Positions 4,026-61,197 of a stretch of 64,000 bases of DNA are shown piece after piece. The notes below the pieces were generated by a model, which searched no databases, was not told the DNA's origin, and saw only the letters and a program-made list of their open reading frames with translations. Source of the stretch: an uncultured Gammaproteobacteria bacterium (GTDB lineage Bacteria > Patescibacteriota > Microgenomatia > UBA8517); contig CAZAXL010000006.1 of the NCBI GenBank assembly GCA_964489145.1, positions 1,614 through 65,613 of the forward strand. The letters are read 5' to 3'. The translations under genes were made by a program, and so were the position numbers. Numbering within the stretch: position 1 is the first letter of the stretch; every line of letters starts with the position of its first letter.

Positions 4026-5516
4026 ATGTCCCTTTTACCAATTATCCTGATAGCCGCCCCTTTTGTTCTATTTTTAATACTTCTTCTTTGGAAGAGAACA
4101 CCGCTTATTTGGGTTTCTCTGATTACATTAGTCCTGATAATTGTTTTAGCAATTTTCTATTGGCAAGTTTATCCAGCATATATTTTAGGGTCTCTGGCTA
4201 AAGGATTCTTTGTAGCCCTTGATATATTTTTTATTATTTTTGGCGCAATCCTTTTTTTGGAAATTATGCGGGAGACAAAAATTATCGAAAATATCGGCTA
4301 CCATTTGGAATCCATTTCGAGAGATCTTCGTGTACAGGTAATATTTCTGGCCTGGTTTTTTGAGAATTTTCTGGAAGGGACAGCCGGATTTGGAACCCCT
4401 TCGATAGTTGTTGCCCCTCTTCTGGTTGGCCTTGGAATTCCCCCTATTGATGCTGTAATAATTGCAATTTTGGGCAACAGCGCCTCGGGTGTTTTTGGCG
4501 CTGCGGGAACTCCTATTAAAGTTGGTTTTGGGGCTCTTGCCGGAGCCTCGGTTCCTTTCACTGCGGCACTTGTTAATTCGATTGGAATTTTGGTGCCGGT
4601 TTTTATGCTCTGGTTTTTAACTAGAAAAAAAGAGAACGGCAGGAAAGAATTTATTGAGGCACTTCCTTTTGCCGTTTGGGCAGGAGTTGCCTTTGCGGTT
4701 CCATCAATACTAACTGTTTTTATAGGTCAGGAATTTCCATCGATTTTGGGGGCGGTAATTGGCCTTGCCTTGGTGCTTTTAACTACAAAGTTGGGCATTT
4801 TTACACCGAAGGTGGAAAAAGAACTTGTGGATATACCGCGACCAGCCACGCTCTCATTGGGCAAGGTAATATTTCCTTATTTACTCCTAATAGTAATCTT
4901 GGTTGCTGGCAAGTTTATCCTCGGAACTTCAGGAATATCAATCCCAATCATTATTAAACATACATTTGCGTATTTTAATCCCGGTTTTGCCTTTATCATT
5001 GCAGGAATAGTGACTTTGTTAGCATTTAAAAAAGATATTAATTTTTTTGGATCTTCCGTAAAGTTGGCCTTTAAAAGATCGCTGGAACCGTTTTGGGTGA
5101 TAGTTTTTATGTCTGCAATCTCGCAGATAATGGTTACTTCAGTCAATAATTTAAACGCTTTTCCATCGATGATCGACTTTCTGGCAGTTTATTTTAGAAA
5201 CACTTTTCTTCCGCTTTGGGCTCCTGTCATAGGAGCTTTTGGGAGTTTTCTTACAGGAAGCATAACTGTTTCCAATCTGATGTTTGGCAACTTTTTTGTT
5301 GCTGCTGCAAACGATTTGAGTTTTGGCAGCGATAAAATTTTGGTACTTGCTCTTGTTGGGGCAGCAGCGGGAAACATGATTGCACTTGCCGATATAATGG
5401 CAGCGGAAGCTGCTGTAGGACTTAAAAACGAGGAAAGGAACGTATTAAAGGGGGTAATTTTACCGTGTTTAATTTATGTCGGATTGGTCGGTCTTGTAGG
5501 GATGTTTATTTTATAG
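4026..5516 (+). CDS. L-lactate permease family (LctP) transporter
   Basis: Polytopic membrane protein; ENFLEGTAGFGTPSIVVAPLLVGLG matches the LctP signature LEGAAGFGAPVAI. Confidence 0.65.
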   Translation: MSLLPIILIAAPFVLFLILLLWKRTPLIWVSLITLVLIIVLAIFYWQVYPAYILGSLAKGFFVALDIFFIIFGAILFLEIMRETKIIENIGYHLESISRDLRVQVIFLAWFFENFLEGTAGFGTPSIVVAPLLVGLGIPPIDAVIIAILGNSASGVFGAAGTPIKVGFGALAGASVPFTAALVNSIGILVPVFMLWFLTRKKENGRKEFIEALPFAVWAGVAFAVPSILTVFIGQEFPSILGAVIGLALVLLTTKLGIFTPKVEKELVDIPRPATLSLGKVIFPYLLLIVILVAGKFILGTSGISIPIIIKHTFAYFNPGFAFIIAGIVTLLAFKKDINFFGSSVKLAFKRSLEPFWVIVFMSAISQIMVTSVNNLNAFPSMIDFLAVYFRNTFLPLWAPVIGAFGSFLTGSITVSNLMFGNFFVAAANDLSFGSDKILVLALVGAAAGNMIALADIMAAEAAVGLKNEERNVLKGVILPCLIYVGLVGLVGMFIL

Positions 5517-34645: not shown

Positions 34646-34720
34646 TGGTGGAGCCGGATAGAGTCGAACTATCCTCCGTACTTTATAAGAGTACTGTCCT
34701 AACCGATGAACGACGGCTCC
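34646..34720 (-). tRNA. tRNA-Ile, anticodon UAU (gene TAT), CCA encoded
   Basis: Cloverleaf GGAGCCG/CGGCTCC acceptor, D-arm GTTC-ATCGGTTA-GGAC, anticodon stem GTACT/AGTAC with loop CTTATAA, T-arm GATAG-TTCGACT-CTATC, A73 then CCA. Confidence 0.7.
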
Positions 34721-34835
34721 CCAAGTTTCGTCATAAAAGCGTGTCTTACCATCCGATGGCAAGCCTTGCTTATCATTAAACGACAAGCCCGTTACTATTA
34801 AAGTCTAAGCGTATTATATCAGAAGCAAAGCTAAA

Positions 34836-35699
34836 TTATAGTTCGATGAGGGTTTGTTTTTTGCCCGGGTCAGTAATCTGGGCAAGCTCAAGATAGCGCT
34901 CGGTTGTCGAAAGGCGCTTGTGTCCCGAAACTTGTGAGAGAAGAACGATATCAACTCCGGCCTTAAGATTTTCAATAATAAATGTGGTCCTCAAGTCATT
35001 GACAGAGTAGTTTGGAAGTTCTGCCCTTTGGATATATCTGGCAATTGATGCCCTGATATTTCTAACTGCCAGAGGCTTTCCGTTTTTGCTGATAAATACA
35101 TACGGCGAATCTGCTTTCGGACGGATTGTCAGATAGGCATTTAATACTTCAGAGGCGGGTTTATTGAGAGGAATAGTTCTTTCGGGTTGAGTTGCATAGG
35201 CCTCAATTTTTAAAGAATCCTTCCCGACATTTTCAGTCTTTAAACCGGCGACCTCGGAAATTCTAAGTCCGCTTTGGAGAATTAGCTCAGTGATAGCGGC
35301 GATTCTGGTATCATTTCTGACGACATCCCTGAGGGCTCTATACTCAAGAGGGGAAAGAAACTTGGGAAGCGCACTTTCAATTTTTGGATGTGCTACCGAA
35401 GCTGAAACATCGGACGTAATAATGTTTTCCGAAATCATCCATCTAAAGAAAGTCTTAACAGCGTTAAGTTTGCGGCTAACCGATTTCGGGGTATATTTAT
35501 CGGCCAAAAGAGTATCACGAAAAGAGTCGAGATCATCCGGTCTCACCTGTTCGGGTAAGACTTTTTCGCGTCTGACCAAAAAATCCACTAGCTGAGTCAA
35601 GTCGCTTCGGTAGGCCAAAATAGTTGCCGGTGAGCGCCTTTTCTCGGTTAACGAATTTATAAATTTCGGGAGCAGGTTTTTAATAGGTTCTTGTGCCAT
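34836..35699 (-). CDS. Tyrosine recombinase, XerC/XerD family (~287 aa)
   Basis: N-terminal core-binding domain (ILAYRSDLTQLVDFL), LRISEV, HKRLSTTERY catalytic region; start moved to MAQEPIKN (ATG 35699). Confidence 0.8.
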   Translation of the reverse strand: MAQEPIKNLLPKFINSLTEKRRSPATILAYRSDLTQLVDFLVRREKVLPEQVRPDDLDSFRDTLLADKYTPKSVSRKLNAVKTFFRWMISENIITSDVSASVAHPKIESALPKFLSPLEYRALRDVVRNDTRIAAITELILQSGLRISEVAGLKTENVGKDSLKIEAYATQPERTIPLNKPASEVLNAYLTIRPKADSPYVFISKNGKPLAVRNIRASIARYIQRAELPNYSVNDLRTTFIIENLKAGVDIVLLSQVSGHKRLSTTERYLELAQITDPGKKQTLIEL

Positions 35700-35792
35700 A
35701 ATATTATTCGTAGATGGGCATCTTTTGTCTATTGCTTTGCAATTATAGTGCAAATTTAAAAATAGTCAATGCATTACAGGATATAATTAATT

Positions 35793-36182: not shown

Positions 36183-36200
36183 TTTCTTTTACAAATTTAG

Positions 36201-36274
36201 TGGCTGAGGAGAGACTCGGACTCTCGACCTCGGCGTTATGAATGCCGCGCTCTTACCGACTGAGCTACCCAGCC
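36201..36274 (-). tRNA. tRNA-Met (anticodon CAU), elongator-like (G1-C72 pair); CCA not encoded
   Basis: GGCTGGG-TA-GCTC..GAGC-CGGCA-TTCATAA-CGCCG-..-GAGAG-TCCGAGT-CTCTC-CTCAGCC-A; A31.C39 mismatch; T-loop has C at position 55. Confidence 0.65.
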
Positions 36275-36284
36275 AACAAATTTA

Positions 36285-36326
36285 CGTCATGATTGCCGTG
36301 CTCTAACCAAATGAGCTACGTAGCCC
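36285..36326 (-). pseudogene. 5'-half tRNA-Met-like fragment (acceptor 5' strand, D-arm, anticodon-stem 5' strand, loop ATCATGA) with no 3' half
   Basis: GGGCTACGTAGCTCATTTGGTTAGAGCACGGCAATCATGACG resembles an elongator tRNA-Met 5' half; sits 10 nt upstream of the intact tRNA-Met. Confidence 0.5.
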
Positions 36327-59179: not shown

Positions 59180-59182
59180 AAG

Positions 59183-59256
59183 TGACCCCATTGGGATTCG
59201 GACCCAAGATTTCTGGGATGAAAACCCAGCGTCCTAGACCACTAGACGATGGGGCC
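59183..59256 (-). tRNA. tRNA-Glu (anticodon UUC); CCA not encoded
   Basis: GGCCCCA-TC-GTCT..GGAC-CTGGG-TTTTCAT-CCCAG-..-TTGGG-TCCGAAT-CCCAA-TGGGGTC-A; T-loop has C at position 55. Confidence 0.8.
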
Positions 59257-59267
59257 ATGTTGATATG

Positions 59268-59339
59268 TGAGCCCTCTGGGACTCGAACCCAGAACCGCTT
59301 CCTTAAAAGGGAATTGCTCTACCATTGAGCTAAGGGCCC
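59268..59339 (-). tRNA. tRNA-Lys (anticodon UUU); CCA not encoded
   Basis: GGGCCCT-TA-GCTC-AATGGTA-GAGC-ATTCC-CTTTTAA-GGAAG-..-CTGGG-TTCGAGT-CCCAG-AGGGCTC-A. Confidence 0.8.
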
Positions 59340-59358
59340 TCATGGGGCACCTTGGATA

Positions 59359-59394
59359 AATGGCAAGATATTCTTACCATTGAGCTAAGGGCCC
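59359..59394 (-). other. tRNA-Lys 5' fragment (20-22 nt identical to the tRNA-Lys 5' end) fused to a 9-bp hairpin (AATGGTAAG/CTTGCCATT), ~20 nt upstream of tRNA-Lys
   Basis: GGGCCCTTAGCTCAATGGTA-AGAATATCTTGCCATT in tRNA orientation. Confidence 0.6.
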
Positions 59395-59443
59395 GCGTAA
59401 GCTCATATTTTACTCGTTTAGAGGTAATTCCTCAAGCTGGAGG

Positions 59444-60088
59444 TTAGACTCTTTCTTTTGATAGCCGTGTGGAAGTTTCTAATTCGATCTCAGGAATGGT
59501 TTTTTCAGCATTAACTACTATCAATCTGTCCTCGATTGCCAGCCTTTCTATTAGTGGTCTGGTTAACTCATGGAAAGTTCTTAACTTTTTCTCGACCGAT
59601 TCCGGCCTGTCATCGTCCCTGGGAAGTAGGCCACTGGCTTTGGCAATATCATTTCTCATTTTAGATCTTTCTCTGGTAGTTTCATCGGAAACCGGATAAT
59701 AAATATAGTGGGGGATTATTTCAAAATCTTTGGACATTTCGATGAACATATCATCCACCAGATTTAACTGAGTAACAGTTCTGGGAAATCCTGTAAACAG
59801 GAAAGTGGTAATGCCGTTTTCGGTCTTTTCCAGAAGTACCTCTTTTACTATTTTGACGATTGGCTCATCCGGAATATAGCCTCCGGAATCGACATTGGCA
59901 ATATAAGGTTCCAAAACGCTGTGATATTTGGCAAAATCTCCGACACAATCTCTTGCCCCTCTATAAATTTCCCCCGTGGAGAGTTTTATGGAGTCTTGCA
60001 ACTTTTCAAGCAGAAGATTCGCCTGTGTATCTTTGCCAGACCCACCCTTGCCGATAAAAAAGATAAATTTTAGAGGTGCTCTTTCCAT
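59444..60088 (-). CDS. adk: Adenylate kinase family nucleoside-monophosphate kinase
   Basis: GKGGSGKDTQA P-loop, LFTGFPRTVTQ; start moved to MERAPLKF (ATG 60088). Confidence 0.75.
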   Translation of the reverse strand: MERAPLKFIFFIGKGGSGKDTQANLLLEKLQDSIKLSTGEIYRGARDCVGDFAKYHSVLEPYIANVDSGGYIPDEPIVKIVKEVLLEKTENGITTFLFTGFPRTVTQLNLVDDMFIEMSKDFEIIPHYIYYPVSDETTRERSKMRNDIAKASGLLPRDDDRPESVEKKLRTFHELTRPLIERLAIEDRLIVVNAEKTIPEIELETSTRLSKERV

Positions 60089-60184
60089 AATGGGAATATA
60101 GCGGGGAAGTCCAAAATAATCAAGATGAGACAAGCTCGCGGTTTTTGGAAAACTGGTATAAAATACACATGCCAGACAGAACAT

Positions 60185-60219
60185 TGGGGAGTCGTCTAAT
60201 GGTAAGGAAACCTTGCCAT
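60185..60219 (+). other. tRNA-Gln 5' fragment (20 nt identical to the tRNA-Gln 5' end) fused to a hairpin (AATGGTAAG..CTTGCCAT), 27 nt upstream of tRNA-Gln
   Basis: TGGGGAGTCGTCTAATGGTA-AGGAAACCTTGCCAT; tail homologous to the Lys fragment tail. Confidence 0.6.
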
Positions 60220-60245
60220 CAGCCTTCCAGTTTTAGTTTTAATAT

Positions 60246-60317
60246 TGGGGAGTCGTCTAATGGTAGGACAGCAGCCTTTGAAGCTGTTTATTCTAGGTTC
60301 GAATCCTAGCTCCCCAG
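60246..60317 (+). tRNA. tRNA-Gln (anticodon UUG); U1-A72, G73; CCA not encoded
   Basis: TGGGGAG-TC-GTCT-AATGGTA-GGAC-GCAGC-CTTTGAA-GCTGT-TTATT-CTAGG-TTCGAAT-CCTAG-CTCCCCA-G. Confidence 0.8.
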
Positions 60318-60358
60318 CAAAACTTGGAGGCTTACACGCTAGTTAATTTCAAAAAATC

Positions 60359-60933: not shown

Positions 60934-61197
60934 ATGTCTTATTTCGTTTATATTCTCCGTACATCTTCAGATACGCTTTATATTGGTCAAACAAATAATC
61001 TAGAGAAAAGGTTAAAAGAACACAAAAATAAATCTACTAAATCCGCCAAGTATATTCGGTATTTTGACTCGGTGGACTTGGTTTATTCAGAAACACACAC
61101 AACCAGAAAAGAGGCAATGCAAAGAGAATCAAAACTTAAGAAATTGACCAAGGTCAAAAAGGAAGCGCTGATATCCGGAAAAGGGGAGTGTTTATAA
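60934..61197 (+). CDS. GIY-YIG nuclease family protein
   Basis: YFVYIL..SDTLYIGQTNNLEKRLKEH. Confidence 0.75.
   Translation: MSYFVYILRTSSDTLYIGQTNNLEKRLKEHKNKSTKSAKYIRYFDSVDLVYSETHTTRKEAMQRESKLKKLTKVKKEALISGKGECL

Follow-up and report, generated by a model that had tools for sequence, protein, structure and literature searches.

We report that two tRNA genes in a window of 64,000 nucleotides (nt) (GenBank assembly GCA_964489145.1, contig CAZAXL010000006.1, positions 1,614 to 65,613 of the forward strand, renumbered here from 1) are each preceded by an exact copy of their own first 20 nt, which lies 55 nt upstream of the gene for tRNA-Lys(UUU) and 61 nt upstream of that for tRNA-Gln(UUG) and is joined to the gene by an insert with a predicted hairpin. 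Comparison with relatives showed the anatomy of these modules, the polarity of their insertion, the family to which they belong and the dynamics of that family, which numbers 71 distinct units once duplicates are removed. By its sequence the window can be assigned to Candidatus Woesebacteria (candidate phyla radiation (CPR)/Patescibacteria), and the family, for which we propose the name tRNA 5′-end fold-back leader repeat, appears to be specific to the Microgenomates lineage of the CPR. We read it, with confidence a little short of even, as a lineage-specific family of fold-back (direct-inverted-direct) duplications that is seeded at ..GGTA and carried as a removable part of the leader.

The Lys and Gln modules and their empty sites

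On the minus strand, the Lys fragment (59375..59394; GGGCCCTTAGCTCAATGGTA) copies tRNA-Lys nt 1-21 (20 nt, 20/20 identity) and is followed by the insert (59340..59374; AGAATATCTTGCCATTTATCCAAGGTGCCCCATGA) and the intact tRNA-Lys(UUU) gene (59267..59339; ARAGORN and Rfam, 68.1 bits). The Gln module has the same order on the plus strand, with a fragment (60185..60204; TGGGGAGTCGTCTAATGGTA) copying tRNA-Gln nt 1-21 (20 nt, 20/20 identity), an insert (60205..60245; AGGAAACCTTGCCATCAGCCTTCCAGTTTTAGTTTTAATAT) and the intact tRNA-Gln(UUG) gene (60246..60318; ARAGORN and Rfam, 66.6 bits), and two further bases on the upstream side of its fragment likewise match the surroundings of tRNA-Gln. Both fragments end right after the D-loop sequence ..AATGGTA (tRNA nt 21) and run into AG-N-loop-N′-CTTGCCAT, giving tails (AGAATATCTTGCCATT in Lys, AGGAAACCTTGCCATC in Gln) that are identical at 12 of 16 positions. 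In each module AATGGTAAG pairs with CTTGCCATT in an upper hairpin (59359-59381, minus strand; 60198-60219, plus strand) of 9 bp including one U·G, or 10 bp with the next pair (A-U or G-C). The original prediction, made from the letters of the window, had described 20-22 nt copies of the two tRNA 5′ ends stopping exactly after AATGGTA, tails of 12/16 identity and a 9-bp hairpin in each module, all of which agree with these data; its view that the two fragments are related beyond their tRNA parts is likewise supported. What it called non-tRNA tails, however, deserves that name only for a short constant core (AG-A-ATA-T-CTTG in Lys, AG-G-AAA-C-CTTG in Gln), the remainder being an inverted copy of the 5′ segment of the same tRNA (CCATT..AAGGTGCCCC with a 4-nt spacer in Lys, CCATCAG..CTTCC with a 17-nt AT-rich spacer in Gln).

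The degenerate motif AATGGTAAGRAWAYCTTGCCAT occurs twice in the window against 0.03 expected occurrences, and none of 100 shuffles reached two. Predicted folding energies are -23.5 kcal/mol for the Lys unit (z = -3.6) and -17.5 kcal/mol for the Gln unit (z = -2.6), and a covariance model built from 65 hairpins (R1) recovered the Gln module at 48.1 bits (E = 6.5e-10) and the Lys module at 46.2 bits (E = 2e-09). ARAGORN and Rfam found six tRNA genes in the window (Ile-UAU, two Met, Glu, Lys-UUU and Gln-UUG), and neither called a cloverleaf (RF00005) in the fragments, which stop at nt 21.

Syntenic loci (L numbers below) were retrieved through homologues, 58-90% identical, of adk (59444..60088, minus strand; 214 aa, Pfam ADK 6e-19), which lies between the two modules and whose product is identical to the adenylate kinase of Candidatus Woesebacteria GW2011_GWC2_40_30 and GWD2_40_19. 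At L003 and L011, tRNA-Lys starts directly after the conserved leader ..gagcttacgc (GAGTAAAATATGAGCTTACGC), where the window has the Lys fragment, and at L010 and L013 a distance of 19-20 nt separates the TG-extended -10 element from tRNA-Gln, whose start falls where the Gln fragment begins in the window. An intact tRNA standing at the fragment's place in these relatives shows that the upstream fragment is the ancestral 5′ end of the tRNA and has kept its original distance from the promoter. Compared with empty sites, filled sites are longer by 55 nt (Lys) or 61 nt (Gln), inserted between tRNA nt 21 and 22 and consisting of new sequence plus a second copy of nt 1-21; direct repeats of 20 nt flank the insert, the gene is reconstituted at one end, and the empty sites of the relatives are precise.

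The Lys unit is present in the window, L013, L033 and L047 and absent from L003, L009 and L011, and the Gln unit is present in the window, L009, L011 and L014 and absent from L047, L010 and L013. L047, with 90-94% DNA identity to the window, has the Lys unit and lacks the Gln unit, and the 765-kb contig Ga0265292_1000010 has a module at neither tRNA. The two modules are independent loci, each present or absent by itself in relatives, and the stretch marked by the original prediction (59359-60219) covers these two units together with the intervening adk. Two different Gln units, 'alpha' and 'beta', were found in either order at L031 and L091, and alpha-type inserts orthologous to the Gln insert of the window at L009, L011, L014, L033, L085 and L091.

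Size, anatomy and turnover of the family

A scan pattern (G-Y-Y-Y-A-A-Y-GGTAAG, 4-7 nt, CTTG, 0-1 nt, CCAT) was run on three collections. Modules made up 24 of 43 matched loci in species-representative genomes, the remaining matches being chance occurrences in coding DNA of unrelated phyla in about the number expected, and 57 of 83 matches in metagenomes; neither of the two matches in viral contigs was a module, both lying in coding DNA without tRNAs. Units found with the pattern accompany tRNA-Gln UUG/CUG, Lys UUU/CUU, Gly UCC/GCC, His, Ala GGC, Trp, Pro CGG and Leu CAG. Searches free of the pattern (14-mer self-match and R1) added Thr CGU and Arg UCU/UCG units with the junction GGATA|AG as well as Phe and Lys-CUU units in L050 with the junction after U8-A9, and in all about 15 tRNA types carry units. 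The record titles of the true genome matches read Woesebacteria, Microgenomates, Levyibacteriota, Patescibacteria and, in some cases, 'uncultured Gammaproteobacteria' metagenome-assembled genomes (MAGs). The MAGs so titled (third-party annotation assemblies; L018, L031, L032, L034, L035, L038, L040, L048, L050 and L059) have typical Microgenomates-type modules and tRNAs, and their 'Gammaproteobacteria' titles are probably wrong.

The original prediction had proposed a comparison of loci in relatives and was to fall if neither further copies nor conservation turned up; this refuting condition does not hold, since the modules belong to a repeat family of 71 distinct units that is conserved in relatives, though absent from some of them. 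Among the possibilities it listed, a small repeat family fits the data, and a decoy or processing structure in the leader is a further candidate. It had not recognised the element as a described one, and searches of the accessible literature, which leaves most subscription journals outside its coverage, likewise gave no account of hairpin-bearing tRNA 5′ fragments in the leaders of CPR tRNAs, so that the family is provisionally undescribed.

Each unit consists of the tRNA 5′ 20-21 nt in two direct copies with an insert of 30-47 nt, and up to 56 nt among the 71 units, between them. In pattern-type units the insert always starts right after ..GGTA (tRNA nt 21) with the constant core, namely AG, a base N, an A-rich loop of 2-5 nt, the partner N′ and CTTG(G)CC, after which come an inverted copy of the D-loop and D-stem of the unit's own tRNA, often including the acceptor strand, and a spacer of 0-25 nt. 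AG follows GGTA in all GGTA-junction units but one (L142 Lys-CUU, which has AAC). N and N′ form a Watson-Crick pair in 61 of 70 units (C-G 42, A-U 12, G-C 6, U-A 1), and this pair varies also within the orthologous Lys and Gln sets. The G of CTTG is always opposite U20, making U20·G invariant (65/65 in the alignment), and the second G of CTTGG is bulged in 34 of 70 units. The arm follows the D-loop of its tRNA, AATGG being matched by CCATT, ACTGG by CCAGT, AGTGG by CCACT and AGTTGG by CCAACT; the AACGG D-loop is matched by CCGTT in L033 and uncompensated in L009, L011 and L093. Often the inverted copy extends through the D-stem in tRNA-specific form (His CCATTGAGC, Gly/Trp CCATTGAAC, Gln CCATTAGAC).

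In alignment A1, 78.9% of cells pair; shuffles give 74.1%, and displacing the partner by 1-3 columns lowers the figure to 14-46%. On the same alignment, 63 cells change on both sides against 30.9 in shuffles (0/500 shuffles reach 63). In the predicted folds of most units, D-stem nt 10-13 face an internal loop, below which the acceptor strand takes part in a lower stem. Folding energies confirm that pairing goes beyond the upper stem: against shuffles of this part of the tail alone, the mean z is -2.3, with z under -2 in 42 of 68 units. Of 69 units, 51 fold more stably as the sense than as the antisense strand. When module and tRNA are folded together at full length, the cloverleaf forms alongside the fragment-tail hairpin, and folds that use the fragment in place of the 5′ strand of the tRNA proper compete in energy. 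By manual count, the different tRNAs of a contig agree in bulge type (CTTGGCC vs CTTGCC) in 9 of 11 contigs (multi-module contigs in the comparison: the window, L029, L031, L033, L046, L084, L111, L136, L139 and L142), and the type differs between lineages at orthologous units, the Lys and Gln units of the window lacking the bulge and those of L033 having it. Derivation of the tail from the tRNA's own 3′ acceptor strand or T-arm was rejected, as Lys tails read ..CCC (Watson-Crick) where the tRNA has ..CTC; a G3·U70-type strand is kept only in Ala L090 (both by eye).

Fragment and tRNA of the same unit agree at every position in 63 of 71 units, the other eight having 1-4 mismatches, and this identity holds where lineages differ at 1-4 positions (L009, L011, L013, L033 and L138), as exemplified by the lineage-specific TGCGGGA..AACGG of L009 and A7 of L013. 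Copy number is 0, 1 or 2 and varies between close relatives: arrays of two identical units occur at L052, L084-Gln and L084-Thr (the Thr unit being 42 nt long and lacking a spacer), longer decayed arrays at L050 and L049, and an orphan unit at L053 within the 550 nt available. At L035/L115 the fragment is mismatched to the downstream tRNA, as at the Ile locus of the window (see below). Simple tandem duplication was rejected, the sequence upstream of the two copies being different (0-3 nt of identity in 26 of 31 first-set units) with the exception of L018 (15 nt), L094 and the true arrays. Slippage or unequal recombination between the 20-nt direct repeats would delete units precisely and duplicate them, and the same recombination would keep a fragment identical to its tRNA by concerted evolution, so that loss, expansion and concerted evolution would all be explained without selection on the fragment.

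Leader context and origin of the units

At the Lys locus, a consensus scan revealed a promoter-like site (59407..59435, minus strand; TTGAGG-17-TAAAAT) whose -10 ends 12 nt upstream of the fragment, and the leader ..gagtaaaatatgagcttacgc is conserved in relatives both with and without the module. The Gln fragment lies 20 nt downstream of an extended -10 element read from the sequence (60154..60164, plus strand; TGGTATAAAAT). In the window and at many other loci, extended -10 elements (TGnTAAAAT or TGnTATAAT) precede the first fragment by 12-33 nt, and every unit shares the strand of its tRNA and is placed either between it and the promoter or between two tRNAs, as in the spacers of single operons at L036, L038, L046 and L052. 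With promoters upstream of the first fragment, the units are presumably part of the primary transcript. Two other roles for the insert were tried and rejected. A promoter within the tRNA-proximal insert (TTGCCA/TTGGCC as -35) gave a best -10 score of 3.13 vs 2.68 in shuffles, a good -10 hexamer being found in only 12 of 70 units, most of them 0-2 nt from tRNA +1 (the Lys unit of the window has ATGAGG); and a scan for intrinsic terminators or attenuators gave no match at 59340-59396 or 60185-60245, Lys-type units having just 1-3 extra T after the stem.

Among 170 core occurrences in all fetched DNA, 118 follow TGGT(A), 15 CGGT(A) and 6 TGAT(A). Hairpins of the same build were also observed at -10 regions reading TGGTAAAAT, at L014 (~5390-5440), L021 (1812-1870), L140 (8330-8389), L075 (10200-10242) and L046 (minus strand, offset ~2579). 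At the first three of these the CTTGGCC arm is exactly 17 nt upstream of TAAAAT (manual count), a spacing that is fixed though arm, junction and repeat lengths differ, which suggests that the arm is used as the -35 box of these promoters. The target is the motif ..(T/C)GGTA and not the tRNA as such, a point that the original prediction had missed. The D-loop-targeted insertion that it offered also fits the data, and the break point is, as it had stated, the 3′ edge of the D-loop.

Selfish, scar and functional are all candidate natures of the family. In the fold-back reading that we favour, new units would arise by copy-choice or fold-back at ..(T/C)GGTA sites, the weakest step of the proposal; the constant core would come from an existing unit and the arms would be templated by the new site, which would account for site-specific arms around a constant core. 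Seeding at ..(T/C)GGTA would likewise account for units lying only at TGGTAAAAT promoters and at tRNAs whose D-loops end in GGTA/GATA, mostly the 7-nt AAYGGTA. To judge from the promoter positions, the whole array would be transcribed in the pre-tRNA leader or inter-tRNA spacer, where fragment and inverted copy would fold into the predicted bipartite hairpin and so hold the antisense segment off the 5′ half of the real tRNA, and the hairpin would, on our assumption, be cut off with the leader by RNase P. Most units would be neutral or selfish passengers and some would have been co-opted, as at the three promoters with 17-nt spacing. Replication template switching (quasi-palindrome or fold-back copy choice) resembles this scheme in its direct-inverted-direct repeat order, microhomology boundaries and expansion or contraction through direct repeats, but it is normally sporadic, whereas the modules recur at one motif with a conserved core and class-wide persistence.

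Several points weigh against the fold-back reading. Its birth mechanism is conjecture, and transcription of the units and their removal by RNase P are assumed. The core (AG..CTTG(G), the U·G and the optional bulged G) could equally be the signature of a dedicated enzyme or stem from selection. Pairing with the acceptor strand, counted without gaps, hardly exceeds that in composition-matched shuffles (5.07 vs 4.79), and sense-strand wobble outside U20·G is not in excess (0.083 vs 0.088 per site), so that RNA-level selection on the lower arm is supported neither way. Spacer-orthologous units persist in relatives whose adk is 58-74% identical to that of the window, and such persistence despite easy precise loss hints at selection for retention. 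Finally, the concordance of the bulged G within contigs (9/11) suggests a lineage-specific trans-acting partner.

A rival reading, which we regard as unlikely though deserving of serious weight, takes the hairpin for a functional RNA element that acts in cis within the pre-tRNA leader and is maintained by selection. The element would mimic the acceptor and D region and be built from three segments that compete with one another, namely the upstream fragment, its antisense tail and the 5′ half of the tRNA proper; it could serve as an additional substrate for RNase P or recruit the enzyme, switch folding or maturation, stabilise the 5′ end or give rise to a small hairpin RNA that a lineage-specific factor would recognise. 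Its constant placement on the tRNA strand, from promoter to tRNA or between tRNAs, would be expected of such an element, as would a U20·G that pairs only in the sense RNA, the stabler sense fold (51/69 units), the covariation at N-N′ and with D-loop variants, the bulge state shared inside genomes and the competitive folds with the fragment in place of the tRNA 5′ strand. Orthologous units are conserved, spacers included (alpha-type Gln), to relatives with adk 58% identical, and CPR genomes have diverged, reduced RNase P RNAs and intron-bearing tRNAs, the RNase P RNAs of Microgenomatia being reported as unusually reduced (PMC8172020). The unit is nevertheless dispensable, being missing at the same tRNA in close relatives; it is found in 0-2 copies, some of them orphaned or decayed (L053, L035 and 34755-34790 of the window), the lower arm has no wobble bias, and the T-to-C change in the D-loop was compensated in one of four lineages (L033; not L009, L011 or L093). 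In addition, the same hairpins stand upstream of -10 boxes, where they would lie outside the tRNA transcript. In Escherichia coli, 3′ETS-leuZ is a regulatory transcribed spacer of a tRNA operon that acts as a sponge for small RNAs. The leader units resemble such spacers in that a stretch discarded as the tRNA matures could itself have a role, but they differ in being derived from the tRNA itself and in having no assigned partner RNA or function. They also differ from archaeal split tRNA genes and those with bulge-helix-bulge introns, as an intact bacterial-type tRNA follows the fragment and the tail complements the fragment, not another leader.

We consider it fairly improbable that the modules are footprints or miniatures of an enzyme-driven mobile element (tyrosine recombinase, HUH/Y1 transposase or nuclease) acting at ..TGGTA of D-arms; such an enzyme would rebuild the interrupted gene as attachment-site (att) duplications do, and the mirror-image 3′ T-loop family described below, which would at this same low probability be a product of the same process, has an inverted T-stem and carries CCA in 5 of 17 downstream duplicates and never inside the tRNA. 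As in integrative elements, the outer copy is ancestral and the inner copy comes with the insert, and the D-stem/D-loop/D-stem is symmetric with a 7-nt centre, which by inference only is recombinase-core-like. The specificity of the target (118 TGGT, 15 CGGT and 6 TGAT of 170) and a constant core whose type is concordant inside a genome, as in pairs of repetitive extragenic palindromes (REPs) and REP-associated tyrosine transposases (RAYTs), point the same way, and in archaea (Caldiarchaeum) a tRNA-Thr 5′ fragment was left 1.8 kb upstream by an integrating, recombinase-bearing element (PMC3293823). Against this, the insert is just 30-47 nt long (35-41 nt in the window) and has no open reading frame, no kb-sized version was found among about 140 loci, and a fixed element cannot match about 15 tRNAs unless templating by the target is added. 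Neither an integrase nor a transposase is linked, the neighbours of the L060 module being bacA, a racemase and typA, and the XerC-like gene of the window (34836-35753) is not conserved beside Ala-type modules. A linked XerC-like integrase or GIY-YIG nuclease was rejected as a candidate, since L060 has neither and the placement of GIY-YIG genes is independent of modules, and a phage or mobile genetic element origin was rejected on the two viral-contig matches, neither of them a module. Stand-alone GIY-YIG genes of 82-88 aa were observed in the window (60934-61197, plus strand, 87 aa), L009 (4691-4957), L010 (9461-9718) and L011 (2114-2362), near the adk/tRNA-Gln/tRNA-Lys cluster at a position that differs per relative and with or without modules.

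Known elements offer partial parallels to the modules. The att duplications of tyrosine-recombinase islands and of Caldiarchaeum share with them a tRNA-end direct repeat, a displaced original outside and a gene rebuilt from the insert, but att duplicates the anticodon loop or T-loop to the 3′ end, whereas here the 5′ end (nt 1-21) is duplicated; the modules are also gene-less and without integrase, and they have an inverted copy of the target, a constant mini-hairpin core and arms that fit about 15 tRNA types. REPs, bacterial interspersed mosaic elements (BIMEs), REPINs (REP doublets forming hairpins) and miniature inverted-repeat transposable elements (MITEs) are likewise short, imperfect non-coding hairpins in many copies, with lineage-specific types, high turnover and occasional co-option. 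Unlike these, the modules are constant over only about 12 nt (AG..CTTG(G)CC), copy their arms from the adjacent tRNA and sit at one position at tRNA genes with a 20-nt direct duplication, and within the windows of 8-20 kb available around them no partner resembling a RAYT was identified.

It is highly improbable that a degraded group I intron, once located at nt 20/21, left the hairpin as its P1 helix, in which the 5′ exon would pair with an internal guide. As in P1, the flank of the junction pairs with a downstream guide and a U·G lies beside the junction, here invariant and one base before the end of tRNA identity (no more than a resemblance); the arm covaries with the 'exon', and tRNA genes of Patescibacteria do carry group I introns (PMC8172020; bioRxiv 10.1101/2025.07.03.662931). 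These introns are, however, reported in the anticodon loop (position 35/36; bioRxiv 10.1101/2025.07.03.662931), the insert measures 30-47 nt, and at Rfam gathering thresholds the window and 20 module loci gave only tRNA and rRNA and no catalytic core (P3-P9; RF00028). The functional gene is moreover uninterrupted, complementarity reaches 13-20 nt, much longer than in P1, and comes with a direct duplication, and promoter hairpins have the same build. Chance duplication debris with no family behind it, which only the small size of the units recommends, is refuted by the excess of the motif in the window (2 vs 0.03) and by the recurrence of one junction and core across 71 distinct units from independent genomes, and we give it practically no credence.

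Other tRNA-derived sequences and significance

A decayed third module of the window (34755..34790, minus strand; GGGCTTGTCGTTTAATGATA followed by AGCAAGGCTTGCCATC), absent from the original prediction, was matched by R1 at 24 bits (E = 0.0011; match placed at 34749-34783, minus strand). Its fragment is a tRNA-Ala(GGC)-type 5′ end with GGTA changed to GATA and matches the Ala(GGC) modules of L048, L060 and L090. It lies 22 nt downstream of the promoter element TGATATAAT and 34 nt upstream of tRNA-Ile(UAU) (34646-34720), whose 5′ end it no longer matches, and the tRNA at this locus may have been replaced or remodelled. The tRNA-Ile(UAU) gene encodes CCA, unlike the Lys, Gln, Glu and Met genes of the window, and the XerC-like integrase gene (34836-35753) is immediately upstream of the decayed module. 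A tRNA-Met-like 5′ half (nt 1-38; 36285..36325, minus strand), 13 nt downstream of the promoter TGATAAAAT and 10 nt upstream of tRNA-Met (36200-36274), is diverged, with 2 mismatches to the neighbouring tRNA-Met in its first 14 nt. It has no GGTA|AG hairpin and no AG/CTTG core (fold z = -1.6) and is a related phenomenon, in which the old 5′ part stays at the promoter, outside the hairpin family; the original prediction had counted it as a third copy, but it is a relic of another kind.

A mirror-image 3′ family was observed in relatives, in which an intact tRNA is followed by an insert of 48-115 nt and then by a duplicate of nt ~56-76 (T-loop to 3′ end). It is present at 19 of 200 distinct tRNA loci (L011 3358-3450, L013, L014, L032, L033, L034, L080, L094, L098, L111, L119, L139, L140 and L142), none of them a tRNA of the window, and its insert has the conserved ends TCG..CTCGC ... 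TTTGCACACGA, or ACTTCGACAGGCTCAGTG..., with an inverted T-stem copy. Other tRNA-derived leader units were observed at L112 and L119 (both upstream of tRNA-Gln), L084 (~300-480) and L077 (upstream of tRNA-Glu); they include a 96-nt tandem 'mini-tRNA' unit made of nt 1-13, a 41-nt structured insert, nt 16-26 and a GAAA-tetraloop hairpin, and a tRNA-Glu leader unit with its junction after nt 14.

In the window, tRNA-Glu(UUC) (59182-59256, minus strand) starts 10 nt after the end of tRNA-Lys, and other genes around the modules encode SpoU, HD, thioredoxin and signal peptidase proteins. In L002 (1092-1389), a near-identical strain, the whole tRNA-Glu is tandemly duplicated with a 223-nt period, a single copy being present in the window and L001, which shows rearrangement of tRNA loci to be ongoing within the population. 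L118 (~4330-4400), otherwise identical to the Lys locus of the window, has a tRNA-Lys with an internal deletion (..GGTAGAGC|CCCAGAGGGCTCA), which is either a broken allele or an assembly artefact.

It is possible, though rather doubtful, that the units are either a new miniature mobile insertion with 3′ T-loop counterparts or functional tRNA-mimic leader hairpins. As a mobile insertion they would home to ..TGGTA in highly transcribed tRNA genes and promoters, template their own arms and restore the gene by end duplication; as functional hairpins they would evolve together with a processing factor specific to Microgenomatia, for instance the reduced RNase P. If true, either version would amount to a new class of element associated with tRNA genes, found in the largest uncultivated radiation of bacteria. 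Genes for tRNAs are among the most conserved and most targeted genomic loci, and a class-wide, self-templated hairpin insertion that leaves the gene working would be a new mode of genome change or a new pre-tRNA layer in the CPR, where RNase P is reduced and many RNA genes bear introns; the regularity and breadth of the family would surprise a specialist in tRNA or the CPR. In practice, the fragments can mislead tRNA and promoter prediction, and close relatives differ in which units they have and in how many copies, which makes the units easy markers at the strain level. The family also offers a testable model for the fragmentation, duplication and rebuilding of tRNA genes, which bears on the origin of split and disrupted tRNA genes.

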